From an uncultured Pseudomonadota bacterium (lineage in GTDB: Bacteria; Pseudomonadota; Gammaproteobacteria; Steroidobacterales; Steroidobacteraceae): a DNA stretch of 64,000 nt. Position 1 is the stretch's first letter, and each line of letters begins with the position of its first letter. The notes beneath the pieces are model-generated. The model ran no database searches, was not told the DNA's origin, and saw only the letters and a program-made list of their open reading frames with translations. Below, in pieces: positions 14,090 through 60,808 of the stretch. The translations under genes and the position numbers were made by a program. The stretch is taken from positions 180,569-244,568 of the forward strand of contig CAVYKG010000010.1 of the NCBI GenBank assembly GCA_963769065.1, read 5' to 3'.

Positions 14090-15430
14090 TTGGACGGGCT
14101 TCCGAAACCGCAGCGCTACTGGTCGGCGATCGCGATATGGCTCGCCATCTCGATGTCGGTGCTCGACAGTTCGATTGCGAACGTCGCGTTGCCGACCATC
14201 GCGCAGAAGCTGAATGCCGAGCCGTCGACGTCGATCTGGATCATCAACGCCTACCAGCTCGCGATCACGATGCTGCTGCTGCCGCTCGCGGCGCTCGGCG
14301 ACCGCATCGGCTATCGCCGCGTGTATTTGCCCGGTCTCCTGCTGTTCGTCCTGGGCTCGCTGGCCTGCGCGCTGGCGGGCAGCCTCACCCTGCTGATCGC
14401 CGCCCGCATGTTCCAGGGCATTGGCGCGGCGGCCGTCATGAGCATGAACGCGGCGATGGTGCGGGCTACTTACCCGCTGACGATGCTCGGGCGAGGTATC
14501 GGCTACAACGCACTCGTGCTGTCGCTGTCGGCGGCCGCCGGTCCGACGATTGCCGCCGGCATCCTGCAGGTCGCGCCGTGGCCGTGGCTGTTCGCGATCA
14601 ACGTGCCGGTCGGTCTCGCCGCCTTCGCCATCGGCGTGCGTGCGCTGCCTCGCGTCGCCGGTCATGGTCGGAAGGCCAACTACCCCTCGGCGGCGCTCAG
14701 CGCGGTGACGCTCGGCAGCCTCGTCTACGGGGCGGAGTCGATGGCGCGGGGTGATCCGAGCATCGGCGCGCCACTGCTCGCCCTCGCGGCGGTCGCGGGA
14801 ACGGTGCTGGTCCGCCGCGAGCGCACCCGACCCGCGCCGCTGCTGCCGCTCGACCTGCTGCGCATTCCGGTCTTCGCGCTGTCGATCGGCACGTCCATCA
14901 CGTCGTTCGCGGCGCAGATGCTCGCGTTCGTCACGCTGCCTTTCCTGTTGCAGAGCGTGCTCGGCCGCAACGTGCTCGAGACCGGGCTGCTGATGAGCCT
15001 GTGGCCGATCTCGATCGCCGTGGCGGCGCCGGTCGCGGGACGACTGTCGGACCGCTATCCGGCCGGGCTACTCGGAGGCATCGGGCTTGCGACCTTCTCG
15101 GTCGGGCTGCTGTCGCTGTCGCTGCTCGGCGAGCACCCGGATACCGTCCATCTGCTGTGGCCGATGGCCCTGTGCGGGGCGGGGTTCGGGTTCTTCCAGT
15201 CACCCAACAATCGCGTGCTGGTCAGTTCGGCGCCGCGCGAACGATCGGGTGCGGCCGGCGGGATGCTCGCGACCGCGCGACTGCTCGGTCAGACGACCGG
15301 CGCGGTGACCGTGGCGGTGGGCTTCCACTGGATGGGCGTGGGCTCGTCGCCGATGCTGCTGCGGATCGCCGCCGCCGCGGCCGCAATCGCCGCGATGATC
15401 AGCCTGCTCCGGCTGCGGCTCGGGCGCTGA
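14090..15430 (+). CDS. MFS transporter (drug:H+ antiporter-like)
   Basis: 446-aa ORF containing 'SVLDSSIANVALPTIA' and 'LGDRIGYRRVY' MFS motifs. Confidence 0.8.
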   Translation: MDGLPKPQRYWSAIAIWLAISMSVLDSSIANVALPTIAQKLNAEPSTSIWIINAYQLAITMLLLPLAALGDRIGYRRVYLPGLLLFVLGSLACALAGSLTLLIAARMFQGIGAAAVMSMNAAMVRATYPLTMLGRGIGYNALVLSLSAAAGPTIAAGILQVAPWPWLFAINVPVGLAAFAIGVRALPRVAGHGRKANYPSAALSAVTLGSLVYGAESMARGDPSIGAPLLALAAVAGTVLVRRERTRPAPLLPLDLLRIPVFALSIGTSITSFAAQMLAFVTLPFLLQSVLGRNVLETGLLMSLWPISIAVAAPVAGRLSDRYPAGLLGGIGLATFSVGLLSLSLLGEHPDTVHLLWPMALCGAGFGFFQSPNNRVLVSSAPRERSGAAGGMLATARLLGQTTGAVTVAVGFHWMGVGSSPMLLRIAAAAAAIAAMISLLRLRLGR

Positions 15431-15438
15431 TCGCGCGT

Positions 15439-17041
15439 TCAGGTCGCTTTCGCGGAGAGCGCCGCGAGTTCCTCGAGATCGAGGTCGCGCTCCAGCTCGT
15501 GCAGCGTGCGGTCGTCGATCTCGCCCGGCGCGATGCAGCCGCAGCAGCTCCGCGCGGCCGGCCGCGACGGCCTCCAGCACCAGGTCGAAATGTGCCTGCA
15601 GCCGCGGCTGGTACTGCGCCTTCGTTGCCGGCGTAGTTCGCCGATGCCTGCGCGCGCCGGCGATAGCGCTCGAGCAGTTGCGGATGGATCAGCGTGCCGT
15701 CGGCCGCGTAGGCCCGCCGCTCGATGACCTTGCACCTGCGCCTGCGCCATCGCGGCCTCTGCCTGCGACATGCTCAGACGCGCGCGGCGTGCGCCGCGCC
15801 TCGGGCGGTCGCACCCAGCGGATGACCGCGGCCGAGCGTCGTGCCCTGGATGAGCACGGTGACCAGGATCACCGCGAACGCCGCGACCAGCATGAAGTCG
15901 CGGCCCGGCAGCGTCGGCGGGCACGCTCAGCGCGACGGCCAGCGTGACGACGCCGCGCATGCCGGCCCAGCTGAGCACCGTCGACGCACGCCAGCCCATC
16001 GGTCTCGAAGCGTCGCCAGCCGAGGGCGCGACGCAGCGCGATGATCGCCGTCGCAGGCGAAGATCCAGGCGAAGCGCGCCAGCGTCAGCGCCAGCAGGAT
16101 CCACAGGATGGGCACGGTCATCTGCTCGACCACCACGCCGAAGCCGCCGACGCGATCGATGACGTCGCGCAGCGACGAGCCGATCAGCATGAACACGCTG
16201 GCTTCGAGCAGGAAGATCAGCACGTTCCAGAACGACGTGCCGCGCAGCCGGATGGCCGCCGAGAACACCGACGTGCTGGTACCAGCCGCAGATGAGGCCC
16301 GCGACCACCGTGGCGATGACGCCCGACACGTGCAGCATCTCGGCCAAGATGTAGGCGGCCCAGCACAGCAGCACCGAGGAGGCGATGACGAGGTATTCGT
16401 CGCGCAGCCGTCGCGACGACGAAGACCCAGGCTGCGCCGCGTGGCGACGCCGACCAGCCGCGCCGCCCAGCGCGAGCAGCGCGAAGCTGCCGAGCGCGTC
16501 CGCGACGCTGAAGGTGCCGGTGACCGCCGCGGCCACCGCGAAGCGGAACAGCACCAGGCCGGTGGCATCGTTCAGCAGGCTCTCGCCTTCGAGCAGGATG
16601 GACAGCCGCTGCGGCAGGTGCACCCGCTGCAGCACGGCGCGCGCCGACGATCGCATCGGGCGGCGAGACGATGGCGCCCAGCGCCGCGCACGCCGCCCAC
16701 GGCAGCGACGGCAACAGCCAGTGCGTCACCACCGCGACCACCACGGTGGTGAACACCACCGCGCCGATCGCCAGCGACAGGATGCCGATGAGGTGCCGGC
16801 GCAGGTGGCGCAGTGGGATGAACCAGGCGCCATCCATCAGCAGCGGCGGCAGGAAGATGACGAGCACCAGCTCCGGATCGAGCGAGATGAGCGGCAGACC
16901 CGGCATGAAGGCGAGCGCCGCGCCGCCGATGATCAGCGCGACCGCCGGCGGCAGACGCAGCCGGTGGGCGAGGTAGTGCAGCGCGATGACCGCGAACAGC
17001 ATCGCGATCAGCAGTTCGAACAGTGCGGTCGCGTGCATCAA
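15439..17041 (-). pseudogene. CPA1-family Na+/H+ antiporter (YjcE/NhaP-like), multiply frameshifted
   Basis: Homologous segments alternate among three frames. Examples: 'MMHATALFELLIAMLF...GAIVSPPDA' (ORF 16217..17041), 'LPQRLSILLEGESLLNDATGLVLFRFA' and 'DEYLVIASSVLLCWAAYILAEMLHVSGVIATVVAGL' (ORF 15439..16656), and 'SFWNVLIFLLEASVFMLIGSSL' (ORF 15927..16568). By hand I count at least 8 frame changes. Length is 3n+1. Confidence 0.8.
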
Positions 17042-17979
17042 CGGGCCGGCAGCGCGTCCCAGAACCGCTCCATCCGCCCGCGCATCGCGGCATCCGGCAG
17101 CCGGCCGCGCCCGGCCGCCTGGTTGTCGCGCAGGTGATCGACGTTCGTCGTACCCGGGATCACCGCGGTGATGGCCGGGTGGGACAGGTTGTACTTCAGC
17201 AGGAACTGCGCCCAGGAGCGCGCCCCGAAGTCGGCTGCGAAATCGGGCAGCGGCACATTCGCGACGCGCGGGAACAGGCTTGCATTGCGCCCGCCGAGCG
17301 GCATGTTGTTCAGCACTGCGATGCCCCGTTCAGCCGCGAGCGGCAGCAGGTCTGCCGCGGCGGCGCGGTTCGCGATCGAGTAGTCGACCTGCACGAAGTC
17401 GAGCCGGTGACGCCGCATCACCTCGAGGAACTGCTGGTGCTGCCGGGGCGAGGCGGTGGTTGCGCCGATGTACCGGATGCGCGTGTCCTGCTGGTATTCG
17501 CGCAGCAGCGGCATGACGTCGTCGAAGCGCACGAGACTGTGGACCTGCGCGAGGTCTATGACGGGGACGCGAAGGTCGGCGAACGACTGGTCGATGAGCT
17601 GGCGCGTGATGGCCGCATCGGCCTGCGGCGCCGAGACGGGCTTGGTCGCGAGGAAGAAGCGCTGGCGGTTGCCGAGCTCGGCGACCAGCTGGCCGATGAC
17701 CTTCTCGGACCGTCCGTAGCCCCGCGCCGAGTCGACGACACTGCCACCGAGAGCCGGCATTGCGCGCAGCACCTCGCGCAGCGGCGCGAGCGCTTGGGGT
17801 GCTTCGACATCGAACGCATTCGTGCCGATGCCGACCACGGGTAATTTCTCGCCGGTCGATGGCACGGTGCGCAGCAAGGGTTCGCCCGCGTCGTCGGTCG
17901 CCGCCGGCAACCGCGCAGCGCGGGCTGCGGCAGCCACGCCGAGTGCGGCGCGAAGCATCGATCGGCGTGAGATTTCCAT
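17038..17979 (-). CDS. Aldo/keto reductase with Tat-type signal
   Basis: 'MEISRRSMLRAALGVAAAA' has a twin-arginine motif, and the AKR core is continuous. Its stop overlaps the antiporter start by 4 nt. Confidence 0.8.
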   Translation of the reverse strand: MEISRRSMLRAALGVAAAARAARLPAATDDAGEPLLRTVPSTGEKLPVVGIGTNAFDVEAPQALAPLREVLRAMPALGGSVVDSARGYGRSEKVIGQLVAELGNRQRFFLATKPVSAPQADAAITRQLIDQSFADLRVPVIDLAQVHSLVRFDDVMPLLREYQQDTRIRYIGATTASPRQHQQFLEVMRRHRLDFVQVDYSIANRAAAADLLPLAAERGIAVLNNMPLGGRNASLFPRVANVPLPDFAADFGARSWAQFLLKYNLSHPAITAVIPGTTNVDHLRDNQAAGRGRLPDAAMRGRMERFWDALPAR

Positions 17980-18862: not shown

Positions 18863-19693
18863 TCACCGGACGATGCTGAGCAGCTCGGCGATGTTGCCTA
18901 GAATGCGGTGCGGCCTTCGCAGGCCGCGCTCTTTGGCCCAGCCTTTCGCATCGAGCACGCCGGTCGTCACCCCGAACGCCGTGGCGCCGAGGCGCCGAGC
19001 CATCACCGTCTCGACGCCCGGGTCATCGCCCACCACGCCGACCTCGCGCGGACGCACGCCGAGCCGGCGCGCGACGAAACGCAGCGCATGCAGCGAGGGC
19101 TTGCCGGTGAGGATCATCGGTGCCCTGGTCATGTGCCGGATCGCGCCGACGATCGCGCTCGAGTAACCCATCGTCCGCCCGTGCCGCGTCGCGAAGAACG
19201 GCACGTTCGATGCGACGTACAGTCGCGCGCCGGCCCAGACGGCCTGGCAAGCCGCCTCGATATCGCGCATGTGGCAGTCGGGGTGCCAGCCGACGTAGAC
19301 CGCGTCGACGCGGGCTGCGTCCTTGTCGCCCGGGAACACGATGTCGATGCCGGCCTGCTCGAGCGCGTAGCCGACGCCTCGCTCACCGAGTATCAGTGTC
19401 CGCTCGATGCCACCGCGACTCATGACTTCCGCCGTCACGCTGGAGGGCGTGAGCATCTCGGTGTCGGCCACATCGAGACCGATGTCGCGCAGCTTCGCTG
19501 CCTGCTGCGCAGGCGGGTAGGCACTGCCGTTGGTCAGTACGACGTACGGAACGCCGCGCTCGCGCAGCCGCTTCAGGACGTCGATCGCGCCCGGCAGTAC
19601 CTGGTAACCACCGAGCGACTTGTCGCTGAGCAACAGCGTTCCATCGAGATCGAACATGAAGCCCTTGATGGGCGGCAGCCGGACGGCGGACAT
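18863..19693 (-). CDS. HAD-IIA family hydrolase (NagD/phosphatase-like)
   Basis: 'GFMFDLDGTLLL' (motif I DxDGT) and 'GKPS...VGDD' motifs. ATG at 19693. This is the last gene of the carboxylase operon. Confidence 0.8.
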   Translation of the reverse strand: MSAVRLPPIKGFMFDLDGTLLLSDKSLGGYQVLPGAIDVLKRLRERGVPYVVLTNGSAYPPAQQAAKLRDIGLDVADTEMLTPSSVTAEVMSRGGIERTLILGERGVGYALEQAGIDIVFPGDKDAARVDAVYVGWHPDCHMRDIEAACQAVWAGARLYVASNVPFFATRHGRTMGYSSAIVGAIRHMTRAPMILTGKPSLHALRFVARRLGVRPREVGVVGDDPGVETVMARRLGATAFGVTTGVLDAKGWAKERGLRRPHRILGNIAELLSIVR

Positions 19694-19710
19694 GCGATTC
19701 CTTTGTCTCT

Positions 19711-21180
19711 TCAGTTCGAATGGCGGCGCAGGGTCAGCCGGAAGCCCGGCTTCTGCACCGAGATCTCGTCGATGTCGCGCCGGTCCACGAGGCCACGCAG
19801 CAACTGCAGCGCCGGGCGCAGCCGCGGATCGTAGCTGCGAGGCGCGGGCCCCGCCGCGCGCATCGCGTCGACCTGCCCTGCGGGCATGGTCGCGCGCAGC
19901 AGGAACTCCTCGTCCGAGTACTGCAGGCCGATGCGCCGACGCAATTCGGCCAGCGGCGCCATGTCGGGCTCCGCGGCAAGCTCGCGCGTGCGCGGCAGCG
20001 AGTGCAGACGGTCGAGCACGGCCGGGTCGATCGGCACGTTGGGGCGACCGAAGCGTCCGAGCGCGTAGCGGATGATCTCGTCGGGGAACATCGCGTAGCG
20101 TTCCTTGCCCGTCACGTTCATCACCGCCTGGGTCAGCAGCATCTGCGCGAACGGCGTCATGACGATGGGCCAGCCGAGTTCCTGCCGCACGCGGCCGAGT
20201 TCGTCGATCACCGCGCTCTCGAGATGACCGAGGCGGTTCTCGGCCAGCTGTCGTCGCATCGTGCCGATCATGCCGCCGGGCAGCTGGTGGTGCAGATAGG
20301 CCGCGTCGAACGCCTGCGGCCGACCGACCGGCAAGCCCTCGGCCGCCGCCAGCGCATCGAAATACGCGCTCACCCGCCTCTGGGCATCGAGGTCGATGTC
20401 GACGGCCTGACCGAGCGCGCGCAGGTTCGTGACGACGCGCTCGGCCGGCGGGTTGGACGTGCCGTCCCCTGCCGCGCCGGAAGCGCACTGGAGTGCGGCG
20501 ATGCCGTAGTCGACGGCATCGAGATAGACGTCTTCGGCCTGGCCGATCGTGCTGTGCGCGTGCAGCTCGAGCGGCTTGTCGCCAACCACCGCGCGAATTG
20601 CGGGCAGCAGGCGGCGCGCTCGCGCAGGCGTCAGCAGTCCGCCCGGATCCTTGACGTACAAGGCATCCACATCGGGACAGGCGGCCAGCTTGCGCGCGCA
20701 GGCGACGTAGTGGGCATCGTCGTGCACGGGGCTCAGCGTGTAGACCAGCGCCGCGATCACGTAGTCGCCGCCGGCCTGCTTGACCATCCTCGCGCAGGCG
20801 ATGTTCGCATCCGCATCGTTGGAGGGGTCTGCGAGGCAGAAACGCCGGATGCCGTTGCGGGCGAGCGTAGCGAAGGCGAGCGACATGAACTCGGGGCTGG
20901 CCGTTTCCCAGGAAATGAAACGGAACCCGGTCGACATGAACTGCAGCGGCGTGCGCGGCGTCGCCTCGGCCATCAACCGGATGCGCTCCCACGGATCCTC
21001 GCGCTTGTAACGCACGGCGACGCCCATGTGCGTCGAAGTGGTGAAATCGATGGCGCGATAGCCGACCGAGTCCATCACCGGCGCGATCGCCAGCGTGCGC
21101 GCGGTGTCGACTCCGAGTGCAGCCCACAGGCTCTGGTTGCCGTCGCGCAGCGACGTCTCGACGATCTGCAGCTGAGCCAT
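19711..21180 (-). CDS. Carboxyltransferase subunit (pyruvate carboxylase B / oxaloacetate decarboxylase alpha-like, no biotinyl domain)
   Basis: 'MAQLQIVETSLRDGNQSLWA' and 'LELHAHSTIGQAEDVYLDAVDYG' are HMGL-like TIM-barrel motifs. The 489 aa are uninterrupted. The ATG shares its A with the upstream TGA (TGATG). Confidence 0.8.
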   Translation of the reverse strand: MAQLQIVETSLRDGNQSLWAALGVDTARTLAIAPVMDSVGYRAIDFTTSTHMGVAVRYKREDPWERIRLMAEATPRTPLQFMSTGFRFISWETASPEFMSLAFATLARNGIRRFCLADPSNDADANIACARMVKQAGGDYVIAALVYTLSPVHDDAHYVACARKLAACPDVDALYVKDPGGLLTPARARRLLPAIRAVVGDKPLELHAHSTIGQAEDVYLDAVDYGIAALQCASGAAGDGTSNPPAERVVTNLRALGQAVDIDLDAQRRVSAYFDALAAAEGLPVGRPQAFDAAYLHHQLPGGMIGTMRRQLAENRLGHLESAVIDELGRVRQELGWPIVMTPFAQMLLTQAVMNVTGKERYAMFPDEIIRYALGRFGRPNVPIDPAVLDRLHSLPRTRELAAEPDMAPLAELRRRIGLQYSDEEFLLRATMPAGQVDAMRAAGPAPRSYDPRLRPALQLLRGLVDRRDIDEISVQKPGFRLTLRRHSN

Positions 21181-22533
21181 CAGGGTTCCTTCCTCGCGCG
21201 AGCCAGCCGGTGTCGACACCACCGGCCGCAAAGGCCGGATCGTCGACCAGCGAGGACTGGAATGCGAGATTCGTAGCGATGCCTTCGAGGCGCGTCGCCG
21301 CGAGCGCGGCACGCAACCGTGCGAGTGCGGTATCGCGATCGTCGCCGTGCGCGATGATCTTCGCGAGCAGCGAGTCGTAGTACGGCGGCACGCCGCGCCC
21401 CGCTGACGATGTGGGTAGTCGACGCGAATGCCTTCGCCGCCCGGCCACGCGACGTGCGGTCAGCGTGCCCGGGACTCGGCCGGAAAGCCGTCGGCCGGAT
21501 CCTCGGCGTTGATGCGGCATTCGATTGCCGCAGCCACGCGAGCTCGACGGTGCGGCCTGCGCCAGCCGCAGGCCCTCGCCCGATGCGATGGCGATCTGTT
21601 CGGCGACGAGGTCGACGCCCGTCACCGCCTCGGTGACCGGATGCTCGACCTGGATGCGCGCGTTCATCTCGAGGAAGTAGAACTCCCGCGCGCGACGTCG
21701 ACGAGGAACTCGACGGTGCCAGCGCCCCGATAGTCGAGACGCTTCGGCGAACGCGACCGCGGCCGCATGCAGTGCGGACCGCAGCGGCGCAGGCAGCGCG
21801 GGGGCGGGCGTCTCCTCGATCAGCTTCTGGTAGCGGCGCTGCACCGAGCAGTCGCGCTCACCGAGATGCATGACGGCGCCGCGCCCGTCGCCGAGCACCT
21901 GCACCTCGACGTGCCGGCCGCTGCGCGACGTACCGCTCGAGGTACACGCGCGCATCGCCGAACGCGGCGCCGGCTTCCGCGCTCGGCGAGGTCGAGTGCT
22001 TCGGGCAGGTCCTCCAGACGTTCGACCGCTTCATGCCGCGCCCGCCGCCGCCGCCCACCGCCTTGACCAGCAATGGCGCACCGACCCGGGCGCCGAGTGC
22101 GAGCGCCGCTTCGCGCGAGTCGGCCGCTCCGCCTGGCACCACCGGGACACCGGCCGCCTCGGCGGCCTCGCGTGCGCGCAGCTTGTCGCCGACAGCCGCG
22201 ATCTGCGCCGCCGTCGGGCCCGATGAAGATGAGCCCGGCTTCTTCCGCGCAGTTCGGCCAGTACCGCGCGTTCGGAGAGGAAGCCGTAGCCGGGATGGAT
22301 CGCGTCGCAGCCGCTCGCCTCCGCCGCCTGCACGACGGTTCGGCGCCGACAGGTAGCTGTCGGCAGGACGCGCCGGACCGATGCACAGCGTCGGTCCGCC
22401 AGCCGCGCCGGCAGCGAGTCGCAGATCGGCCTCGGATGCGCCGAGCACCGTGCTCGATTCCGAGCCGTCGGCACGTGCGCATGATGCGCAGCGCGATCTC
22501 GCCGCGGTTGGCGATGAAGACGCGCCGGATCAC
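21180..22533 (-). pseudogene. Biotin carboxylase (AccC/PycA-like), multiply frameshifted
   Basis: Segments 'VIRRVFIANRGEIALRIMRTCRRLGIE', 'AIHPGYGFLSE', 'AGVPVVPG', 'LLVKAVGGGGGRGMK', 'HVEVQVLGDGRGAVMHLGERDCSVQRRYQKLIEE', 'FYFLEMNARIQVEHPVTE' and 'PPYYDSLLAKIIAHG' are spread over three frames. I count at least 10 frame changes. Length is 3n+1. Confidence 0.75.
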
Positions 22534-23009
22534 GACTTCGCGGCCGACCCGCAACAGCGGCTGGCCATGCTCGACCAGACTCGCCGTCGGTGACCAGCAG
22601 CTCGACCACCCGTCCCGCTGCGCCCGGCGCGGACGCGTGTTCATCAGCTTCATCACCTCGATGATGCCGATGACGGTCTCTTCGCTCGACCTCGGACGCC
22701 GACCTCGACGAACGGCGGCGCGCCAGGCTTCGGCGCGCGGTAGAACGTGCCCAGGATCGGCGACGACCACCTCGTCGCCGCGCAGCGCGTCCGGCGGCAG
22801 CCGCGGTCGCGCAGCCGCGGCGTACTGGCGCCGCGGCAGCGGGCGCGGTTTCGAGCCGGTGCTGCCGCACCCGCGCGTCGCAGGTTCAGCTTCACATCGC
22901 CGATCTGCAGTTCCAGTTCGATCGAAGCTGCGAGCTCTCGAGCAGGCGCGAGGATCTCCGCCACTTCCGTCGCAGTCAGACTCACCGTCGTGCCTCCGAA
23001 GATCGACAT
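22530..23009 (-). pseudogene. Biotin carboxyl carrier protein, frameshifted
   Basis: 'LTATEVAEIL...ELELQIGDVKLNLRR', 'SPILGTFYRAPKPGAPPFVEVG' and the biotinyl-Lys motif 'IIEVMKLMN' lie in different frames. Net length is 3n. Its boundaries are TGATG with the upstream gene and GTGA with accC. Confidence 0.65.
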
Positions 23010-24045
23010 CACATGCTGCGCGTGGATCGGCAGCGGGCTTCGCGACGCGGCGCCGCCTCGCGTCGTTGCCCACACCGTCTCGGGGCGGCTCTGCAGCAGC
23101 AGCAGCGCTTGCCTGCCGCGCTCGACCGCCCACTCGATGTCCTGCGGCGTGCCGTAGTGGCGCTCGACCTGCGCGGCCCGACCGCGCGCAACTGCTGCAG
23201 CTCCTCGTCGCTGAGGCACGGCGCGGTGCGCAGGTCCGCCGGCGTCTCGACCGACTCCGATGCCGCCGCCCGGGCTCGGGACGATGCCGGACGTGCTTGT
23301 CCGAGATGTCGCGCACGCGTGATCTCGCCGGTGATCTTGCCGACCACCCAGCGGTCCGGGGTGACTTCGCCGCCGACGACGGCCGAGCCGAGCCCCCAGC
23401 GCCTTCGATCGTGATCACCGACCGGTCGCCCGGTCAGCGGGCTGCGGGTGAACATCACGCCGGCGCATGCGCGCGTCGACCATGCGCTGGACGACGACCG
23501 CCATCGCCACGCCGCTCTTCGGGCAGGCCGCGCTTGCGGCGATAGGTCATCGACTCGACCGAATAGAGGCTCGCCCAGCACCGGCGCACGTGCGAGCACG
23601 GTCTGCGCGCGATCGGTCACCCACAGGAAGGTGTCCTGCAGGCCGGCGAAGCTCGCGTCGGCGGCGTCCTCGGTCGTCGCGGAGGAGCGCACCGCGACCG
23701 GGCTCGCCGTTGCGCGCAGAGCTCGCGCGTACGCCGCGCGCGATGTCCGCGTGCGAGCATCGTCCGGCAGCGGCGCCGCCTCGATGCGCGCGCGCAGGAC
23801 TTCGCGCACGCGCTCCGTCGACGGCATCGAGGTCGTCCGGGTCGAGCGCCTCGACCGGCTGCGCGCACCGGCTCAGCGCGCTCCGAGCGCTGCGAGGAAC
23901 GCTCGAACGCCGCGGTGCGTCACGACGAACCCCGGCGGCACCGGCGATGCCGGCGCGCGTCAGTTCGCCGAGGCTCGCGCCCTTGCCGCCGGCACGGTCG
24001 GCCGGTCGCCGATGCCGACGTCCGGCGAACCAGCGCGATCGGCAT
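23009..24045 (-). pseudogene. PEP-synthase N-terminal (PPDK_N ATP-binding) subunit, PpsB-like, frameshifted
   Basis: 'GGKGASLGEL', 'VAVRSSATTEDAADASFAGLQDTFLWV', 'GVMFTRSPLTG', 'GLGSAVVGGEVTPDRWVV' and 'PQDIEWAVERG...LLLLQSRPETVW' are scattered over three frames. Length is 3n+2. Confidence 0.65.
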
Positions 24046-24064
24046 CAGCGTCTCAGCACGGCTC

Positions 24065-25919
24065 TCAGTCCAGGATCGTCACGATGCCGCGCCCGCCGTC
24101 GACGCGGATGCGCTGGCCGTCCGGATCCGCGACGTGGCGTTGCCCGGTGCCGACGACGGCCGGCAGGCCGTATTCGCGCGCGACGATCGCCGCGTGGCTC
24201 ATCGAGCCGCCGATGTCGGACACCGCGGCGCGCGATCTTCTGGAACATCGGCGCCCAGGTCGGATTGGTCACCTGGCAGACGAGGATGTCGCCCTGCTGG
24301 AGTGCGGCCGATCTCCTCCACCGACTTGACGCACGCGCGCGGTGCCTTCGACCACGCCGCGCGAGGCGGCGAAGCCCTTCAGCTCGTTGCTCGGTCGCAT
24401 CGCTGCTCGACGTCGAGCCAGGCATCGAGGTTCTCGCGGGTGATGCCCCACAGCATGACGATCGCCGGGATCGTCGATGACGTCGGGCACCGGGCCGAGC
24501 GCCGGCGGCGTCGTCGTGCCTGGCCCATGCCTTCAGATCGCCGCCTTGCGCTCGGCGACGATCGGCCGGCCAGTGCTGCGGCCCGCGCGGCGGCGCCGCC
24601 CGAGGCCCAGCGAGCATCAGGTCGATGATCGCCGCTTCGAGCTCGTAGTGCGTCAGGTGGAACACGTCGTCTTCCGTCGGCGAAGAAGCCGTGCTCGGCC
24701 AGCAGCGCGCCGAACTCGCGGATCTTGTTGAAGAACAGGTTGGTGTACCAGTGCTCGCAGTAGAACTTGTGGCCCTCGACGTAGGGGAACACGCGGTGCG
24801 CGAGCGTCGATCATCTGGTCGTAGGCCGCGCGCTCCTCGTCCGGTGTCGAGCAGCTCGCGGTAGTCCTCGAGCGAGCTGCTTGCGCTCGGCCTGCAGCCG
24901 CTCCATCGGCCGCTCGAGGTTCTCGCCGGCCTTGCATCTGCTCGATGTAGTCCGGGCAGCGCCGGCGAACGGCATGGTCAGGTCGTCGTTCCAGCTGCGG
25001 TGGTAGTGGTAGAAGCCGTCGCCGACGTTGACGTTGAACCACGGGTCGCGCGACGGTCTCGAGCTCCTCGAGCCACTTCGTGCCCGGCGCGCCCACGCCT
25101 GTCGAGCGATGCCGAGCACCTGCTCGGCACTGTCGCGCCATCGATGAAGTGGTGCGTCGACGCCGAGCTCGACGGCGCAGCGCGCGAGGCGCTTCAGCTC
25201 GTCGTCGGGGCGGAAGATCTCGGCCTCCATGCCGGCGACCATGCGCGCTGATCGTCTGGTCGCTGATCTCCGGGAAGGCCTTCTTGCAGAAGTCGAAGAA
25301 GGTCATGTACGCGCCGTAGCCGAGCAGCAGGAACTCGAAGTGGTGGTGCCACATCCGGAAGTAGCCTTCGAGCGTGCTTGCTGGTAGGTCTCGAGCAGCT
25401 CGTGGTTGGAGGCGATGCCGCGTGCCGGCGTGCACGTGTCTCGAGCGGCTCGTAACTCGGGCAGCGTCGAGCTTCGGCAGCGCCTGCGCGTCCGCGATCA
25501 GCGCCTTCATCTTGACCTTCCACTGGTCGTAGAGCCGTCTCCCAGTGCTCGTAGTAGTAGAACGCGCGCTGCTGGAACTCGCCGGTGCGCTCGCCGATCT
25601 CGGCCGGGTCGGTCACCGCGTACGCCGCCGATGTAGACGCGGCCGTTGATGATGCGGTGGTCGATGCCCTTGGTGGTCGGCAGGCACGTGGACGCGGGTG
25701 TTGGCGGCGCCCAGCGCGCAGTAGGCGGCCTCGGCCGTGACCATGTCGAAGTGCTGCATCGGCTCGGGGAAGTGCATCGAGTTGTAGAACCAGAAGCGCT
25801 CGTCGTCCTCCGGCGCGAACTGGATGTAGTACGGGATAGGCCGCCTGCGCGCGCTCGGTGCCGGGCACGACCTTCAGCGAGCTCGGCAGCGGAAACGTCT
25901 GGTTTGCCGGCGTACTCAT
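24065..25919 (-). pseudogene. Phenylphosphate-synthase alpha (PpsA)-like PEP-utilising His-domain subunit, frameshifted
   Basis: Reconstructed by hand across frames: 'MSTPANQTFPLPSSLKVVPGTERAQAAYP|YYIQFAPEDDERFWFYNSMHFPEPMQHFD|LPTTKGIDHRIINGRVYIGGV|VTDPAEIGERTGEFQQRAFYYYEHWE', 'WHHHFEFLLLGYGAYMTFFDFCKKAFP', 'IFRPDDELKRLA', 'DPWFNVNVGDGFYHYHRSWNDDL', 'FPYVEGHKFYCEHWYTNLFFNKIRE' and '[21 protein letters not shown]|[29 protein letters not shown]...[14 protein letters not shown]'. Length is 3n+1. Confidence 0.6.
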
Positions 25920-30386: not shown

Positions 30387-31996
30387 ATGATCCGCCTGAC
30401 CGAACTCTCCGTCCCGCTCCAATCGTCGGCGGATGCCCTGCGTCGGGCGATCGTCCGCCGGCTGGCATCGAAGACGCCGACCTGCTCGATTTCGCCGTGT
30501 TCAAGCGCAGCTATGACGCGCGACGCAAGAGCAGCGTCATCACGTTCGTCTACATCGTCGATGTCACGCTGCGCGACGAGATACCCGTGCTGCGCCGGTT
30601 CGCGACCGACGTGAACGTCCGTCGCGCCGGATACCACCTACCGTCCGGTTGGGCAGGCACCCGTGGACCGCACGCTGCCCCGCCCGGTCGTCGTCGGTTT
30701 CGGTCCGTGCGGGATGTTCGCCGGGCTGCTGCTCGCGCAGATGGGCTTCAAGCCGATCGTCCTCGAACGCGGCAACGAAGTTCGCCAGCGCACCAAGGAC
30801 ACCTGGGGCCTGTGGCGCAAAAGCATGCTCACGCCCGAATCGAACGTGCAGTTCGGAGAAGGCGGTGCGGGCCTCTTCTCCGACGGCAAGCTCTACAGCC
30901 AGATCAAGGACCCGAAATTCTACGGCCGCAAGGTCCTGCACGAGTTCGTCAAGGCCGGCGCGCCGGAGGAAATCCTCTACGTCAGCAAGCCGCACATCGG
31001 TACGTTCCGCCTGACCGGCGTCGTCGAAAACATGCGTGAGCAGATCATCGCGCTGGGCGGCGAAGTGCGCTTCGAGCAGCGCGTCACCGACGTGCTGATC
31101 GACGACGGCCAATTGGTCGGCGTGCAGCTCAACGGTGGCGAGACAGCTGCAGTCGAAACACGTGGTGCTGGCCCTCGGCCACAGCGCCCGCGACACCTTC
31201 CGCATGCTCCACGGCCGTGGCGTGTTCATGGAAGCCAAGCCGTTCTCGGTGGGTTTCCGCATCGAGCACCCGCAGTCGCTGATCGACCGCGCGCGCCTGG
31301 GCAAGTACGCCGGCCACCCGAAACTTGGGGCCGCCGACTACAAACTGGTGCACCACGCCAAGAACGGACGTTCGGTCTACAGCTTCTGCATGTGCCCGGG
31401 CGGCACCGTGGTCGCGGCGACGTCCGAACCGAATCGCGTCGTCACCAACGGCATGAGCCAGTACTCGCGTAACGAGCGCAATGCCAACTGCCGGGCATCG
31501 TCGTCGGCATCACCCCGGAAGCGATTACCCGGGCGGCCCGCTGGCCGGAATCGAACTGCAGGAGCGTCTCGAATCCCACGCCTTCGTGCTCGGCGGCAGC
31601 AACTACGAAGCGCCGGCGCAACTGGTCGGCGACTTCATGCGCGGCAAGCCGTCCACCGAGCTGGGCGACGTCGAACCCTCGTACAAGCCGGGCGTGCGCT
31701 GGGTGATCTGGCGCTGGCCTTGCCGGCCTTCGCCATCGAAGCGATTCGCGAAGCCCTGCCGGCGTTCGGGAAGCAGATTCGCGGTTGACTCGCTGCACGA
31801 CGCGGTGTTGACCGGGATCGAGACGCGCACCTCGTCACCGCTGCGCATTACCCGTGAGCGAGTCGATGCAGAGCCTGAACGTGACGGGCTGTTTCCCGGC
31901 GGTGAAGGCGCAGGTTACGCGGGCGGGATTCTGTCGGCGGGTGTGGACGGCATCCGCCTCGCCGAAGCGGTCACGCGGTCGATGCTGGCGGCATGA
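30387..31996 (+). pseudogene. FAD-dependent oxidoreductase (COG2509-type), multiply frameshifted
   Basis: 'MIRLTELSVPLQSSADALRRAIVRRL|GIEDADLLDFAVFKRSYDARRKSS|APDTTYRPV...PVVVGFGPCGMFAGLLLAQMGFKPIVLERG...|LQSKHVVLALGHSARDTF...CMCPGGTVVAA...|GIVVGITPE|DYPGGPLAGIELQ...|GDLALALPAFAIEAIREALPAFGKQIRG|...LFPGGEGAGYAGGILSAGVDG'. I count about 9 frame changes. Length is 3n+2. Confidence 0.75.
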
Positions 31997-32739
31997 AGCT
32001 CGACGACGTCAAGAAGCTGCACCTGAAGCGCTATCGCGAGGAACTTGGCCACTTTCTCGTCGAAGGCGAACACCTCGTGCTCGAACTCGAGAAGGCGGCG
32101 AAGGTCACAGCCCCTGCTGCGCGACTGCGAGCTGTACGTGACGCACGAGCACGAGCACTGGCCGAGCCCGTTCCGCAAGCACCTCATCAGCGGTTCGCAC
32201 ATGGCGGCGGTCGCGGACACCAAGACGCCGCAAGGCATCGTCGCGCTGGTGCCGATGCTGCCGACGCCGCCGATGCGTGCCGGCGAGCGCGCCATCTACC
32301 TGAGCGAGATCCAGGATCCCGGCAATCTCGGCACCATCCTGCGCACGCTCGCGTGGTTCGGCGGATTCCGCTGCGTGCTCGGGCCGGGCAGCGTCGACCC
32401 CTGGAATCCGAAGGTGGTGCGGGCGAGCGCGGGCGCCATCTTCCACGTGCCGATCGAACCGGACGTCCGCATCCAGACGCTGAACCGAACGGTTCCCGCG
32501 CATCGCATCGCTGGACATGCGTGGCGAGTCCATCGTCGCCCGCTCGTTCCGCGAATTTGATTGCTATGTGTTCGGCAACGAGGCGCGCGGACTGCCGCAC
32601 GACCAGCTGTCGCGACGTCGGTGCGCTGGCCTACACGATCGCCGGCAGCGGCACGCTCGAATCGCTGAATGTCGCGTCGGCGGTCAATCTCTGCGCATAC
32701 GAACTCACGCGCGAGGACGCCGGCGGCAAGCTCAGGTGA
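31993..32739 (+). pseudogene. TrmH/SpoU-family RNA 2'-O-methyltransferase, frameshifted
   Basis: 'MKLDDVKKLHLKRYREELGHFLVEGEHLV', 'DTKTPQGIVALVP', 'IYLSEIQDPGNLGTILRTLAWFG', 'YVFGNEARGLP' and 'GTLESLNVASAVNLCAYEL' lie in three frames, with shifts near 32110, 32495 and 32612. The ATG overlaps the previous stop (ATGA). Confidence 0.7.
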
Positions 32740-33526
32740 GCTGCCGATAGCGGCTGAGGTGCCGCAGCGCCCGCTGCCGCTCGCCGATCGCGAGCAGGAG
32801 CTGCCCAAGATTGTGGTGCGCGTCGGCCAGTTCGTCGTCGCGCGCGAGCGCCTGCTCGTAGGCCTTCATCGCCTCGGCCGACTCGCCGAGATCTTCCAGC
32901 GCAACGCCCAGGTTGAAGAGCACGACGGCGTCGGGGTCGGTGACGCTGCGATAGTGCGCGACTGCGTCGGCGGGTCGACCCGACAGGTGCAGCAGCCGGC
33001 CGAGGTTCGCGTGCACCGCGGGATGGGGGTGCCGCTTCGCACAGCGCCGGTAGGCCTCGATCGCGGCCTGCGGATCGCCCTCCTCGAGTTCGAGCGCCTG
33101 CTGGAAGGCGGCTTCGCAATCATCCGGTGAGGCCTGCACGAAGTCGACGACCCGGACGCGCCCTTCGCTGACGCGCACTTCGAAACCGAGCAGCAGCTGG
33201 CCGCTGTGAGGCTCTCTCGCGATGCCGGCCTCCCGCACGATCACCTCGTCTCCTACCGCCGCGACACTCAGGCCGCCGAGCGGCGCATCATTGGGCAGCT
33301 GGGCCTGCAACGCGCGCAAGGCATGGCCGACGCGTCGCGCCGGAACCTTCGCATCCTTGAGTCCGCGAGCGGCCCGCAGCACGACCACGTCGCGGAAGGA
33401 GAAGCGCAGCGCGCCGCGCGCATCTTTCGCCGGTGACACGTATCGCGCCCGCACCATGGAGCGGACCGCGGCCACCGTGACGCCCGCGAGCCTTGCGACC
33501 TCGGCTGTCGCGAAGGACGCCGGCAT
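32732..33526 (-). CDS. MerR-type HTH protein with C-terminal TPR repeats
   Basis: The N-terminus 'FATAEVARLAGVTVAAVRSMVRARYVSP...FSFRDVVVLRAARGL' is MerR HTH-like. The C-terminus has TPR-like 'AIEAYRRCAKRHP...ANLGRLL...FNLGVALEDLGESAEAMKAYEQAL'. Its ATG overlaps the ku stop. Confidence 0.7.
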   Translation of the reverse strand: MPASFATAEVARLAGVTVAAVRSMVRARYVSPAKDARGALRFSFRDVVVLRAARGLKDAKVPARRVGHALRALQAQLPNDAPLGGLSVAAVGDEVIVREAGIAREPHSGQLLLGFEVRVSEGRVRVVDFVQASPDDCEAAFQQALELEEGDPQAAIEAYRRCAKRHPHPAVHANLGRLLHLSGRPADAVAHYRSVTDPDAVVLFNLGVALEDLGESAEAMKAYEQALARDDELADAHHNLGQLLLAIGERQRALRHLSRYRQLT

Positions 33527-34419
33527 CAGGCGCCGCGGCCGGCCCGCTTGGTCGTGCCGGTCTTCGTCAGGGTCGAGGCGACACGCTTCGGCGGCTTGCG
33601 CGACGGCGCCGCCTTCGCCGCGCCTTTCTGGTTCAGGCTGCGCTGGAGCACTTCCATGAGGTCGACGACGTTGCCCGAGCTCGACACCGGCGCTTCCGGC
33701 GCCTCGATGCGCGAGATGCTCTTGCCGCTCTTCAGCTTCTTCTGGATCGCGGCGTCGACGCGCTCGCGGAATTCGTCGTGGAACTGGTTCGCGTCGAAAC
33801 GCTTCTCGGTGCGCTGGTCGATCAGCAGTCGTGCGAGCTTCAGTTCAGCGTCGGCGACCGGCGGGAGATCGCCGAGCGCAATGTCCTTGATGGTCCGCAC
33901 TTCGTCCTTGAAATACAGCTGGTGCATTGCAAGGCCTTCGCCCATCGGCCGGACGATCACGATGTGCTCGCGGCCACGCGCGGCCCAGCGCCCGACCGCG
34001 CAGCGCTTCGATTCCGCGAGCGCGGCGACCAGCAACGCATAGGGCCGCTCGCCGTGACGCGCGGGCGCCAGCAGGTACGTCTTGTCGAAATAGGCCGGAT
34101 CGACCGTCTCCAGTGGCACGAACTGCGAGATGTCGATCGAATCCGAGCCTGCCTCTTCCAGCGCCTTGATCTCCTCCGGCTCGAACAGCACGTACTGGTC
34201 CTTCTGCACCTCGTAGCCCTTGACCATCTCCTCGCGCGGCACGATCTTGCCGTCGAGCGCGCAGACATACTGCTGCTTCAGGCGCGAGCCATCCTTCTTG
34301 TGCAACAGGTTGAACGACAGCCGGCTCGACGCGATGGCGGCCGAGTAGACGTCGATCGGGATGCTGACCAGACCGAACGTCAGGGTGATCGATGCGATCG
34401 AACGGGCGGCTGCGGCCAT
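33526..34419 (-). CDS. ku: Ku protein (NHEJ DNA-end binding)
   Basis: 'ITLTFGLVSIPIDVYSA', 'KGYEVQKDQYVLFEPEEI' and 'VDPAYFDKTYLLAP', followed by a basic C-terminal tail. Confidence 0.9.
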   Translation of the reverse strand: MAAAARSIASITLTFGLVSIPIDVYSAAIASSRLSFNLLHKKDGSRLKQQYVCALDGKIVPREEMVKGYEVQKDQYVLFEPEEIKALEEAGSDSIDISQFVPLETVDPAYFDKTYLLAPARHGERPYALLVAALAESKRCAVGRWAARGREHIVIVRPMGEGLAMHQLYFKDEVRTIKDIALGDLPPVADAELKLARLLIDQRTEKRFDANQFHDEFRERVDAAIQKKLKSGKSISRIEAPEAPVSSSGNVVDLMEVLQRSLNQKGAAKAAPSRKPPKRVASTLTKTGTTKRAGRGA

Positions 34420-39303: not shown

Positions 39304-40473
39304 ATGAGCTCACGCCTCCCGCCGCTGCATTCGTGGACGTCGGCCTTCATCGCGATCGTGATCGGCTTCGGCGGCACCATCCCGCTGGTCATCTCGGCGC
39401 TGCGCACGCTCGGTGCTTCGGTCGAGCAGACGGCATCGGCGGTCACCGCCTTGTGCTTCGGCATCGCGCTCGGCAGCGCAGTGCTGTCGGTGCGTATGCG
39501 CATGCCCATCGTGCTCGCGTGGTCGGTCCCCGGTGCCGCCCTGCTGGTCGCCTCGACTCCCGGACTCGCCTGGCCGGTCGCCATCGGCGTGTTCATCGCG
39601 GCGGGCGTGATGATGGCGCTCGTGGGGCTGGTACCGGCACTCGGTCGACTCGCCGAACGCATCCCCATGTCGATCGCCGCCGCGATGCTCGCCGGTGTGC
39701 TGCTGCCGTTCTGCCTCGATGCGTTCCGTCTCGGCGCGACCGATCCGCTGCTGATCGGCACACTCCTCGGTGTCTTCATCCTCGCGCGTCAGCGCGCGCC
39801 ACTCTATGCGCTGCTGCTCGTGCTCGTCGCCGCCATGGCGCTGACGCTGCTGCGACGGCAGGTGGGCGAGCTGCCGACCGGCTCGACTTTCGGCACGCTG
39901 GTACCGGTGCTGCCCCGCTTCGAGGTCGGCGCGGTGGTCAGCCTCGCGATACCGTTCTTCCTGGTCACACTCATCTCGCAGAACCTGGCTGGAATAGTCG
40001 TGCTGCGCACGGCTGGCTATGCGCCAAGCCCCGGCGGCCTGCTGGTCGGCACCGGCATCGCATCGGTGCTGGCGGCGCCGTTCGGCGCGCCCGGCGTCAA
40101 CCTCGCGGCGATCACCGCGGCGCTGTGCACCAACGACGAGGCGCATCCCGACCGCGGACGGCGCTGGGTGGTCGGCGTGATCTACGCCCTTCTGTACGCG
40201 GCCCTTGGCGTGTTCTCGCCCGCACTGGTGCGATTCTTCCTGGCGCTGCCGCACGCGGTCATCGGCGCGCTGGCCGGGCTTGCGCTTATCCCGGCATTGC
40301 TCAGCTCGCTCGAGAACATGCTGGTGCGGACCGAAGACCGCGATGCGGCGTTGCTGACATTCCTCGCTACCGGCTCGGGACTTGCCCTTTACGGCCTCGG
40401 TTCCGCGTTCTGGGGCCTGATCGTCGGGTTCGTGGCACTCGGTGCCCGCAGCGTGCTCAGCCGGCGCAGGTAA
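39304..40473 (+). CDS. benE: Benzoate/H+ symporter BenE family transporter
   Basis: 389-aa polytopic protein containing 'AFIAIVIGFGGTIPLV', 'PIVLAWSVPGAALL' and 'NLAAITAALC'. Confidence 0.8.
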   Translation: MSSRLPPLHSWTSAFIAIVIGFGGTIPLVISALRTLGASVEQTASAVTALCFGIALGSAVLSVRMRMPIVLAWSVPGAALLVASTPGLAWPVAIGVFIAAGVMMALVGLVPALGRLAERIPMSIAAAMLAGVLLPFCLDAFRLGATDPLLIGTLLGVFILARQRAPLYALLLVLVAAMALTLLRRQVGELPTGSTFGTLVPVLPRFEVGAVVSLAIPFFLVTLISQNLAGIVVLRTAGYAPSPGGLLVGTGIASVLAAPFGAPGVNLAAITAALCTNDEAHPDRGRRWVVGVIYALLYAALGVFSPALVRFFLALPHAVIGALAGLALIPALLSSLENMLVRTEDRDAALLTFLATGSGLALYGLGSAFWGLIVGFVALGARSVLSRRR

Positions 40474-41626: not shown

Positions 41627-42721
41627 CTATTTCGCGCGGTCGAGGTATCCCTGCGCCAGCGTCGGAATCGTGATGATGCGGTTCCGCGCGCTGGGCGTAC
41701 CCCAGCCGCCGTAGAAGACCACACCGACGAGCGTCTTCTTGTCGCGGCCGGCGAAGGCGACGCCGTGCAGTCCCTGCGGGCCGGGGATGCTGCCGAGGAA
41801 TTCGCCCTTCTGCGAAAACACATCGACGCTGCGGCCGGTCGAGACATACAGGCGCCCCTCGGAATCGATCGCCGTCCCGTCGCCGCCCTGCCCGCCCCGC
41901 AGCTTGCCGAATTCGCGCGGATTGGCGAGCGCGCCATCGGCGCGGACATCGAACGCCACGACGTCGCCACCATTCGTGACGTACAGCGTCTTCTCGTCGC
42001 GGCTGAGCACGATGCCGTTGGTCGATTTCAGATCGCGCCCGAACGCCGACACCTCGCCTTTCGGATTCGCGTACAGCACTCCAGCAACGCCACCCGACAG
42101 CGTCGCGTAGACACCGCCGCGCGCATCGACCGCGAGATCGTTCAACGAACCGCTGAGGCACTCGAGCGGCTCGCCCTGGAACGTGCTCGCGAACGGCTTC
42201 CGCTGCGGCTCGAGCTGCACGATGCCGCCACCCACGCCGCGGGAAACCATGAACAGCTGCCCGTTCTTGCCGCGGGACACCGCGCCGCTCGTGTTGGTGT
42301 CGGCGTGGACGATGCGCGCGAGGCCCGTGGCGAGGTCGAGACGCATGACGTTGCTCGCGTCGTTGTTCGCGAACAGCAGTGTTCCGTCACGGTCGGCGAT
42401 CGGGCCGTCGGCGTTGTTGCCCTCCCACTGCCACACCACCTTCCACGTCTGCTCCGCGGCGATGACGCCGGGAATGGCGCTCGAAGGCGCGGGCATGGCG
42501 GGCTCGGGCGGCGGATTCGGCGGCGCCGCGGCGTTGGCGCCAGCGCCCCGATTACCGCCCAGCGAGAACGGCGCCGGCGGCGACTTGCACTTCGACTGGA
42601 TCGCCGCGGTGGCCGGATCCTGCCAGGCCTGCTTGCTCGAGCCCCGGTCGAACGACGAGGCCGGACTCTGCGCGAAGCCGACCGAAGCCGACAGCAGCGC
42701 AACTGTAATCAGTGCTTTCAT
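41627..42721 (-). CDS. Secreted SMP-30/gluconolactonase/LRE-like beta-propeller protein
   Basis: Signal peptide 'MKALITVALLSASVGFAQ', then propeller-type repeats 'DGTLLFAN', 'NGQLFMVS', 'RGGVYAT', 'NGIVLSRDEKTLYVTN' and 'DSEGRLYVS'. Confidence 0.7.
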   Translation of the reverse strand: MKALITVALLSASVGFAQSPASSFDRGSSKQAWQDPATAAIQSKCKSPPAPFSLGGNRGAGANAAAPPNPPPEPAMPAPSSAIPGVIAAEQTWKVVWQWEGNNADGPIADRDGTLLFANNDASNVMRLDLATGLARIVHADTNTSGAVSRGKNGQLFMVSRGVGGGIVQLEPQRKPFASTFQGEPLECLSGSLNDLAVDARGGVYATLSGGVAGVLYANPKGEVSAFGRDLKSTNGIVLSRDEKTLYVTNGGDVVAFDVRADGALANPREFGKLRGGQGGDGTAIDSEGRLYVSTGRSVDVFSQKGEFLGSIPGPQGLHGVAFAGRDKKTLVGVVFYGGWGTPSARNRIITIPTLAQGYLDRAK

Positions 42722-42778
42722 TTCGTTCCCCCGGCGCAGCGACCTCACGAGCTTAGCGCCAACTTGCGCCCGTATGCG

Positions 42779-44483: not shown

Positions 44484-45140
44484 ATGAAGGCAGGCCGGCT
44501 CGTCTCCGTCCAGGTCGGGCGGGTAGCGGCGCTCGGCCCTCGAGGGGTTCCGAGCGCGTTCGTGAAACAGCCGGTCGACGGCGTCGTGGACGTTCGTGCT
44601 GGTGGCCTCACGGGCGACACGCAGGCCGATCGCCGCGTTCACGGCGGACCACACAAGGCCGTGTACGGTTATGCGGCCGCACATTTCCCCGCCTGGGCCG
44701 CCGAATGGCCCGAGCACGCGAGCCAGTTCGCGAGTGGCGGTTTCGGCGAGAACCTCACGATCGACGGGCTGACCGAAACCGACCTGTGTGTCGGTGATGT
44801 CCACGGTATTGGCAGCGCCCGACTGCAGGTGTGCCAGCCACGCCAACCCTGTTTCAAGCTCGCACTGCATTTCGGCGAAGCGCGGCTCGGCAAGGCGATG
44901 GTGCGGACCGGTCGCTCGGGCTGGTACTACCGGGTGATCGAACCGGGTGCGCTTCGCAATGGCGACGATATCCACCTGCTCGAACGCCCTCGCCCCGACT
45001 TTCCCTTCGAAGACCTGCTCGACTTCCTGTACACGCGCGGGCTTGATGAGGACGTGCTGCAGCGGGTCGCCGACTCGGACGTGCTGCCACCGGGCCTGCG
45101 CGCCGATGCACGGCGCGAACTCGCCGCACGGCGACCCTGA
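44484..45140 (+). CDS. MOSC domain protein (YiiM-like)
   Basis: 'GLTGDTQADRRVHGGPHKAVY', 'GENLTIDGLTE' and 'LQVCQPRQPCFKL'. Confidence 0.8.
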   Translation: MKAGRLVSVQVGRVAALGPRGVPSAFVKQPVDGVVDVRAGGLTGDTQADRRVHGGPHKAVYGYAAAHFPAWAAEWPEHASQFASGGFGENLTIDGLTETDLCVGDVHGIGSARLQVCQPRQPCFKLALHFGEARLGKAMVRTGRSGWYYRVIEPGALRNGDDIHLLERPRPDFPFEDLLDFLYTRGLDEDVLQRVADSDVLPPGLRADARRELAARRP

Positions 45141-45149
45141 AGCTGCGCG

Positions 45150-46191: not shown

Positions 46192-46292
46192 TAGGTTGCC
46201 CCCGGCACGGAGGATAACGCCTGCGGTGACGTCCTGCAGTCGCCGCGGCAAGCCGGTGCTACGATCCGCGCCGCCAAACCCGGAGACCAGAC

Positions 46293-53169: not shown

Positions 53170-53294
53170 GACGCCCCCGCTGCTTGAGCATCGAGCTTCT
53201 CCCGCTCGGGCGGCGCGGGCAACCGCTGCAGGCCTCTTGACCTGTCATCCTGTCGAATCCACCCTCGAGGAAACGAAGGGATACGGGCTTCCTC

Positions 53295-60797: not shown

Positions 60798-60808
60798 CGT
60801 CCGTTCGA

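Follow-up and report, generated by a model that had tools for sequence, protein, structure and literature searches.

A probable ortholog of the acv/hpe hydroxyphenylethanone catabolic operon in an uncultured Steroidobacteraceae bacterium

Described systems and the six-gene locus

Sphingobium sp. SYK-6 needs each of the six genes acvABCDEF, which form a single operon, in order to grow on acetovanillone and acetosyringone, and in a foreign host the six suffice for turning both compounds into aroyl-acetic acids (Higuchi et al. 2022, bioRxiv 10.1101/2022.04.28.489975). Here we describe a locus that matches this operon in its six functions and in their order and runs from 25919 to 18863 on the minus strand of a 64,000-nucleotide (nt) stretch (henceforth the window) of contig CAVYKG010000010.1 (assembly GCA_963769065.1) from an uncultured member of the Steroidobacteraceae. 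In all likelihood it is an ortholog of the characterized hydroxyphenylethanone (acetovanillone/acetosyringone/4-hydroxyacetophenone) catabolic operon acvABCDEF/hpeHICBAD, which serves the degradation of hydroxyphenyl methyl ketones originating from lignin. [quoted passage not shown]

The homologous and syntenous hpe cluster of Rhodococcus rhodochrous GD02 supplies the enzymology: acetovanillone and 4-hydroxyacetophenone are phosphorylated by HpeHI and are carboxylated by HpeCBA in this form only, and HpeD dephosphorylates the carboxylated products; with the purified enzymes, the kinase comes first, the carboxylase works on the phospho-intermediate and the phosphatase is last (Dexter et al. 2022, PNAS, PMC9618137). 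The xcc carboxylase genes of Aromatoleum aromaticum EbN1 likewise cluster with homologs of the kinase genes hpeHI (PMC9618137). A later study surveyed 17,510 genomes and described a variant with a single-subunit kinase, MarK (Hall et al. 2025, PMC12624787). Thus, a preliminary description of this DNA is outdated where it knows of no characterized pathway combining this kinase family with a carboxylase of the BCCP/AccC/PycB type, both acvABCDEF and hpeHICBAD having been characterized in 2022. The broader proposal made there, namely that a phenolic or enolizable substrate is handled by a two-subunit, phenylphosphate-synthase-like kinase, a carboxylase dependent on biotin and a dedicated phosphatase, agrees well with the published pathway.

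The six genes of the window, which has a GC content of 68%, are tightly packed, with each adjacent pair either overlapping or spaced by at most 19 nt, as established by three-frame translation and reading of the junctions. The acvA-like gene (25919-24065, minus strand, as are the following five) opens with an ATG at 25919 preceded by GGAGAG, and its stop lies at 24065. A 19-nt gap separates it from the acvB-like gene (24045-22982), which shares a GTGA overlap with the gene for the acvC/hpeC-like BCCP (22985-22530); the latter in turn overlaps by GTGA the acvD-like biotin carboxylase gene (22533-21180), whose TGA stop overlaps the ATG of the acvE-like carboxyltransferase gene (21180-19711) as TGATG. 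The acvF/hpeD-like gene for a HAD-IIA phosphatase (19693-18863) follows after a 17-nt gap. After conceptual repair of the frameshifts discussed below, the genes from acvA to acvF comprise about 606, 350, 149, 445, 489 and 276 codons. The junction sequences thereby bear out the earlier reading of six co-directional genes joined by TGATG or GTGA overlaps or by gaps of at most 19 nt, and place them on the minus strand; all the peptide motifs quoted in that reading recur in a three-frame translation of 26150 to 18800. Its assignment of gene contents also stands, whereas the lengths of about 618 and 345 codons given for the first two genes have to be revised to the above values. An open reading frame (ORF) of 1,030 codons listed for 18863-21955 on the minus strand is an artefact that concatenates the end of the biotin carboxylase gene, a shadow frame without stops across all of acvE, and acvF; the true TGA stop of acvD is reached only via one further frameshift near 21200.

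Searches of Pfam with both the raw ORF fragments and the repaired proteins recovered all the families expected of such a system, i.e. PEP-utilizers, PPDK_N, Biotin_lipoyl, Biotin_carb_N/CPSase_L_D2/Biotin_carb_C, HMGL-like with PYC_OADA, and Hydrolase_6/Hydrolase_like. AcvA combines a substrate-binding N-terminal domain with a C-terminal mobile histidine domain of the phosphoenolpyruvate (PEP)-utilizer type (PF00391) bearing the phospho-histidine motif [15 protein letters not shown]. It passes the NCBIfam models NF006153 (754 bits, cut-off 578) and NF006151 (725 bits, cut-off 693) of the PRK08296 family and fails all PEP synthase models; under NF005057, with a cut-off of 598, the scores are 105 bits for AcvA and 295 bits for AcvB. 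Hence, the first two genes do not code for an ordinary PpsA. The kinase is split over two proteins, with no PEP-utilizers_C domain found in the Pfam search of the repaired proteins, and AcvB constitutes the PPDK_N ATP-binding part (PF01326, E = 3.9e-97) with the motifs GGKGASL, RSSATTED and DIEW.

The BCCP is free-standing, with the biotinyl-lysine motif EVMKL and a PF00364 match, while AcvD shows the Biotin_carb_N, CPSase_L_D2 and Biotin_carb_C domains with the motifs GGGGRGM and EMNARIQVEH. AcvE is an intact protein of 489 amino acids (aa) with the HMGL-like and PYC_OADA domains and the metal-site motifs RDGNQ, KDPGG and HAH. It shares this carboxyltransferase fold and these motifs with PycA/PycB and OadA, and its nearest solved structure is 5ks8_C, the beta subunit of a pyruvate carboxylase. 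However, it differs from PycB and OadA in having no C-terminal biotinyl domain (Pfam gives no Biotin_lipoyl match in the 489 aa), and the published Acv substrate is an aryl methyl ketone phosphate rather than pyruvate. Under the curated cut-offs it reaches 277 against 402 bits for PycB (NF006761) and 233 against 756.5 bits for OadA (TIGR01108). Among solved structures, none was found that matches the N-terminal domain of AcvA or an Acv-type carboxyltransferase. AcvF, also intact (276 aa), is a TIGR01460-like protein with Hydrolase_6 and Hydrolase_like domains and the HAD motifs DLDGT, TNG, GKP and GD. Catalytic motifs are intact across all six proteins: the phospho-histidine, the ATP-site, the biotinyl-lysine, those of the biotin carboxylase, the metal-site of the carboxyltransferase and the four HAD motifs.

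The gene order of kinase alpha subunit, kinase beta subunit, BCCP, biotin carboxylase, carboxyltransferase and HAD phosphatase matches both the description of the SYK-6 operon and loci that we found in Altererythrobacter xixiisoli (L001), a Steroidobacteraceae metagenome-assembled genome (MAG; L003) and A. atlanticus (L085), in the last of which an AraC regulator gene precedes the six genes, these being ordered as in the window. From AcvA to AcvF, the window proteins are 76/66/46/71/69/51% identical to those of the literature-named A. atlanticus cluster and 79/68/46/73/76/66% identical to those of L003. Domain content is identical to that of SYK-6 acvABCDEF, with the carboxyltransferase lacking a biotinyl domain in both, although acvA to acvD are frameshifted in the window. 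Likewise, the hpe system of GD02 has the same kinase, three-component biotin-dependent carboxylase and HAD phosphatase, but its operon also includes the CoA ligase gene hpeE and the beta-ketoacyl-CoA hydrolase gene hpeF and is flanked by transposases, whereas that of the window stops after the phosphatase. The pathway is already known from its enzymatic validation in 2022 and a genome survey of 2025, and the window copy is an ordinary ortholog.

The remaining relatives are more divergent. In EbN1 the products of xccABC are homologous carboxyltransferase, biotin carboxylase and BCCP proteins, reported as 55/63/45% identical to AcvE/D/C, but the order is xccA-xccC-xccB, the pathway is the anaerobic one for p-ethylphenol/4-hydroxyacetophenone and the enzymes are biochemically uncharacterized. 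Cassettes of the MarK type share the block of BCCP, biotin carboxylase, carboxyltransferase and HAD phosphatase and the pathway logic with the window, but their kinase is a single UPF0261/Tm-1-like protein in place of the two-subunit, phenylphosphate synthase-related one. That two-subunit family includes the phenylphosphate synthase of Thauera aromatica and CreHI of Corynebacterium glutamicum, which operate by a ping-pong mechanism via a phospho-histidine and to which AcvA/AcvB are reported to be 39-44% identical (bioRxiv 10.1101/2022.04.28.489975); however, the partner carboxylase in Thauera is of the UbiD type and carboxylates the ring, and CreHI feeds an oxidation rather than a carboxylation.

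Certain points weigh against the assignment to the acv/hpe group. The link to the tested enzymes of SYK-6 and GD02 is indirect, via the A. atlanticus cluster and the identical architecture. Unlike in SYK-6, no AraC-type regulator such as acvR is found beside acvA in the window, and no next-step genes of the vceAB or hpeEF type adjoin the operon. Moreover, the two primary studies differ on whether dephosphorylation comes before or after carboxylation (bioRxiv 10.1101/2022.04.28.489975 versus PMC9618137).

Predicted chemistry and the choice of substrate

The published enzymology can be carried over to the window's organism by orthology, and the substrate, step order and activity there are predicted on this basis. 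Using ATP, the PPDK_N protein AcvB would load the mobile histidine of AcvA, which would pass the beta-phosphate to the 4-hydroxyl of an aryl methyl ketone by the chemistry of phenylphosphate synthase, yielding AMP and inorganic phosphate. AcvD would carboxylate the biotinyl-BCCP AcvC from bicarbonate and ATP, and the PycB-like AcvE would move the carboxyl group onto the methyl carbon of the acetyl side-chain of the phosphorylated ketone. Finally, the HAD-IIA protein AcvF would strip the phosphate, with an aroyl-acetic acid such as vanilloyl acetic acid as the predicted product; this would be taken on to vanillate or 4-hydroxybenzoate by enzymes encoded elsewhere.

A possible, if rather unlikely, alternative is that the same machinery serves another substrate in the clade of the window, e.g. 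4-hydroxyacetophenone from the breakdown of ethylphenol or bisphenol, acetosyringone or a further p-hydroxyaryl ketone. The window proteins AcvA, AcvB, AcvD, AcvE and AcvF are just 51-76% identical to the nearest literature-named ortholog (AcvC 46%), the homologs in EbN1 function in p-ethylphenol degradation, and the bisphenol A degraders Sphingomonas bisphenolicum AO1 and Pseudomonas putida YC-AE1 carry related carboxylase cassettes of the MarK type on plasmids. In terms of the characterized systems, SYK-6 uses acetosyringone as well (bioRxiv 10.1101/2022.04.28.489975), and HpeCBA favors the substrate derived from 4-hydroxyacetophenone about tenfold (PMC9618137). Conversely, the LigM-like and LigAB neighbors of related loci and the VanA-like oxygenase of the window (see below) point to methoxylated lignin-type substrates. 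In any case, a different p-hydroxyaryl ketone would refine the assignment to the acv/hpe group rather than compete with it.

Frameshifts in acvA to acvD

Frameshifts were counted by frameshift-aware dynamic-programming alignment of protein to DNA, guided by two different orthologs; plain tblastn was unsuited to the broken genes, its high-scoring segment pairs having passed through wrong frames. The alignments confirm that the upstream four genes are, as previously described, frameshift-riddled: there are 28-29 frameshifts in acvA, 16-17 in acvB, 6-9 in acvC and 17 in acvD, plus one just before the stop of the latter, and none in acvE and acvF. Together they form a patch from 21200 to 25835 with about 68-72 frameshifts, one per approximately 65-70 nt, about 77% of them single extra bases. 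Frame switching across the remainder of the window was traced by a frame-tracking hidden Markov model and three-frame views; a scan of GC3 (GC content at third codon positions) contrast was by itself too noisy.

Similar same-strand patches of frame switching were recovered in unrelated genes of the window: a Na+/H+ antiporter-like gene, identified by eye (15426-17042, minus strand), a gene for an FAD-dependent protein with a neighboring RNA methyltransferase-like gene (TrmH-type, by eye; 30466-32733, plus strand), and a gene for a pyrroloquinoline quinone-dependent dehydrogenase with a C-terminal cytochrome c domain (53285-55354, plus strand; at least 10 frame switches). A possible further patch covers an aldehyde dehydrogenase gene (46290-47630, plus strand). 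Long genes between these patches are intact, e.g. two of 1,030 codons coding for RND pumps. Extreme GC content behind the patches, as expected of short-read dropout, was considered and shows no clear relation, with values of 0.65-0.71 in the patches versus 0.68 elsewhere.

Once repaired, acvA to acvD have GC3 values of 0.83-0.96 and contain zero in-frame stops; the GC3 values of acvE and acvF, which are intact, are 0.86-0.88. Two intact orthologous clusters compared with each other are 75/61/48/70/73/56% identical from A to F; the identity of the repaired genes to their orthologs is as high as this, with no excess amino-acid divergence. Since the repaired genes show no decay and unrelated genes of the window carry like patches, we conclude that the frameshifts of acvA to acvD are very probably local sequencing or assembly errors rather than the result of pseudogenization.

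Under the contrary view the locus would be a true acv/hpe ortholog in which acvA to acvD are really pseudogenized and the pathway is dead. The approximately 68 frameshifts of the sequence as given, ending near the acvD/acvE boundary, speak for it, as does the fact that neither a regulator nor a downstream pathway gene adjoins the operon. Nevertheless, we consider it improbable: the repaired frames keep their GC3 and all catalytic motifs and contain no stops, and their identity to the Steroidobacteraceae orthologs (79/68/73% for acvA/B/D) is on par with that of the intact acvE and acvF (76/66%). Neutral decay lasting long enough for some 70 indels would have left many substitutions and stop codons behind as well; about 70 independent indels devoid of accompanying substitutions are unlike such decay. 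The same patchy frameshifting in the unrelated genes at 15.4-17.0, 30.5-32.7 and 53.3-55.4 kb also speaks against this view. Thus, the earlier suggestion that the system may be inactive here is probably wrong.

The attribution to sequencing or assembly error has to contend with some observations of its own. The patch begins and ends near the start of acvA and the stop of acvD, a slightly fortuitous placement for a patch of poor quality that fell at random. Further, no near-identical sequence was recovered for placing the indels: the best match of the genome scan is 78% identical at the amino-acid level, and an exact 30-mer of acvE in a metagenome scan led to two contigs only, which at 75-82% identity are too distant. 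In practical terms, indel-error patches on this contig would cause automatic annotation to miss real genes or to label them as pseudogenes.

Conservation, variants and genomic neighborhood

A stitched AcvA query retrieved more than 5,396 homologs from a metagenome-rich protein collection, the best about 74% identical and most of them unnamed or labeled as 'PEP-utilizing enzyme' or 'pyruvate, water dikinase'. A genome scan with one genome per species and the intact carboxyltransferase as query gave 80 loci at 70-78% identity, from Steroidobacteraceae, other Gammaproteobacteria, Acidobacteriota, Caulobacteraceae, Sphingobium, a Burkholderiales MAG and a Verrucomicrobiia MAG. Of the 84 loci compared, which span several phyla, 52 have all six genes in colinear order, and most of the others end at contig ends or lack the biotin carboxylase alone; the arrangement is therefore conserved in other genomes. 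By contrast, no flanking genes common to the window and any of the 84 loci were found, and the flanks of L001, L003 and L085, which have the same six genes in the same order, are likewise unrelated. Nor are the intact orthologs simply a pyruvate carboxylase beside an unrelated gene.

Generic family matches to PEP synthase, AccB/AccC and PycB/OadA could be taken to mean that an ordinary PEP or phenylphosphate synthase merely adjoins an ordinary two-subunit pyruvate or acetyl-CoA carboxylase and a stray HAD gene, but this is hardly credible given that the six genes overlap or sit 17-19 nt apart, stay together amid unrelated flanks in Alpha-, Beta- and Gammaproteobacteria, Acidobacteriota and Verrucomicrobiia, and code for AcvA, AcvB and AcvE proteins that score far under the curated PEP synthase, PycB and OadA cut-offs, such that the combination of an ordinary PpsA with a chance-neighbor pyruvate carboxylase is ruled out by synteny and scores.

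The clade of the window comprises more than 5,000 homologs, is plentiful among uncultured Steroidobacteraceae and Acidobacteriota of soils, and retains 70-80% identity across phyla; colinear cassettes are present in dozens of MAG species. The published survey of isolate-weighted representative genomes, on the other hand, found acvAB and acvCDEF colocalized in just 25 of 17,510 (PMC12624787). Hence, the cassette seems to be commoner in uncultured soil bacteria than isolate-based surveys indicate, and its wider spread in uncultured soil and freshwater bacteria bears on the turnover of lignin monomers and on enzyme mining for lignin valorization.

Several architectural variants were observed. A five-gene version, acvA-B-C-E-F, with no biotin carboxylase gene between those for the BCCP and the carboxyltransferase, is seen in L020, L025, L044, L057, L066 and L067, and also in L069-L073, L076-L079, L081, L082 and L084. 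Acidobacteriota versions show a ChrR-cupin-like (Cupin_7) protein of about 200 aa encoded between acvA and acvB (L025, 7860-8492; L020, 7850-8479), which belongs to the same Cupin_7 cluster that neighbors the cassette in other loci. L020 additionally has an ORF of 166 aa between acvA and acvB, and in L067 the space between the two genes is similar in size to that in L020 and L025; L020, L025 and L067 are all among those without the biotin carboxylase gene. It is conceivable, although we regard it as doubtful, that the window's clade has a substrate range different from, or broader than, that of the acetovanillone and hydroxyacetophenone systems characterized to date, and that the five-gene and cupin-insert sub-variants work differently, with the version without a biotin carboxylase borrowing the housekeeping AccC.

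The MarK-type cassettes with a carboxyltransferase 51-56% identical to AcvE of the window are plasmid-borne. Those of S. bisphenolicum AO1 (plasmid pBAR1; L086) and P. putida YC-AE1 (megaplasmid; L087) code for a Tm-1-like/UPF0261 kinase, BCCP, biotin carboxylase, carboxyltransferase and HAD phosphatase, are located on mobilizable or conjugative plasmids and adjoin Tn3/IS5 transposases. In RefSeq the carboxyltransferase is mis-named 'biotin carboxyl carrier protein'.

Genes that recur beside related loci code for an acetoacetyl-CoA-synthetase-like ligase of the HpeE family (19 loci), AraC regulators (18 loci), GcvT-family LigM-like proteins (18 loci), TonB-dependent receptors (17 loci) and LigAB extradiol dioxygenases (15 loci), along with Amidohydro_2 proteins, short-chain dehydrogenases/reductases and zinc alcohol dehydrogenases. 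The immediate neighbors of the window operon are unrelated, viz. an aldo-keto reductase, an esterase, a DUF2238 protein and a GDPD-family protein. However, genes for a VanA-like Rieske oxygenase (44854-46308, minus strand), an aldehyde dehydrogenase (46293-47636, plus strand) and a BenE benzoate transporter (39304-40473, plus strand) lie approximately 14-21 kb from the operon within the same window. Together with a multicopper oxidase (60809-62359, minus strand), these could provide steps downstream of acv, and the context of both the window and the related loci fits a role in the catabolism of lignin monomers.

Among the other genes of the window, those for Ku (33526-34419, minus strand) and an ATP-dependent, LigD-like DNA ligase (41765-43843, plus strand), which are separated by about 7 kb, constitute a bacterial non-homologous end-joining pair. 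A gene of the IMS family (impB/mucB/samB, Y-family polymerase) is present at 59556-61091.

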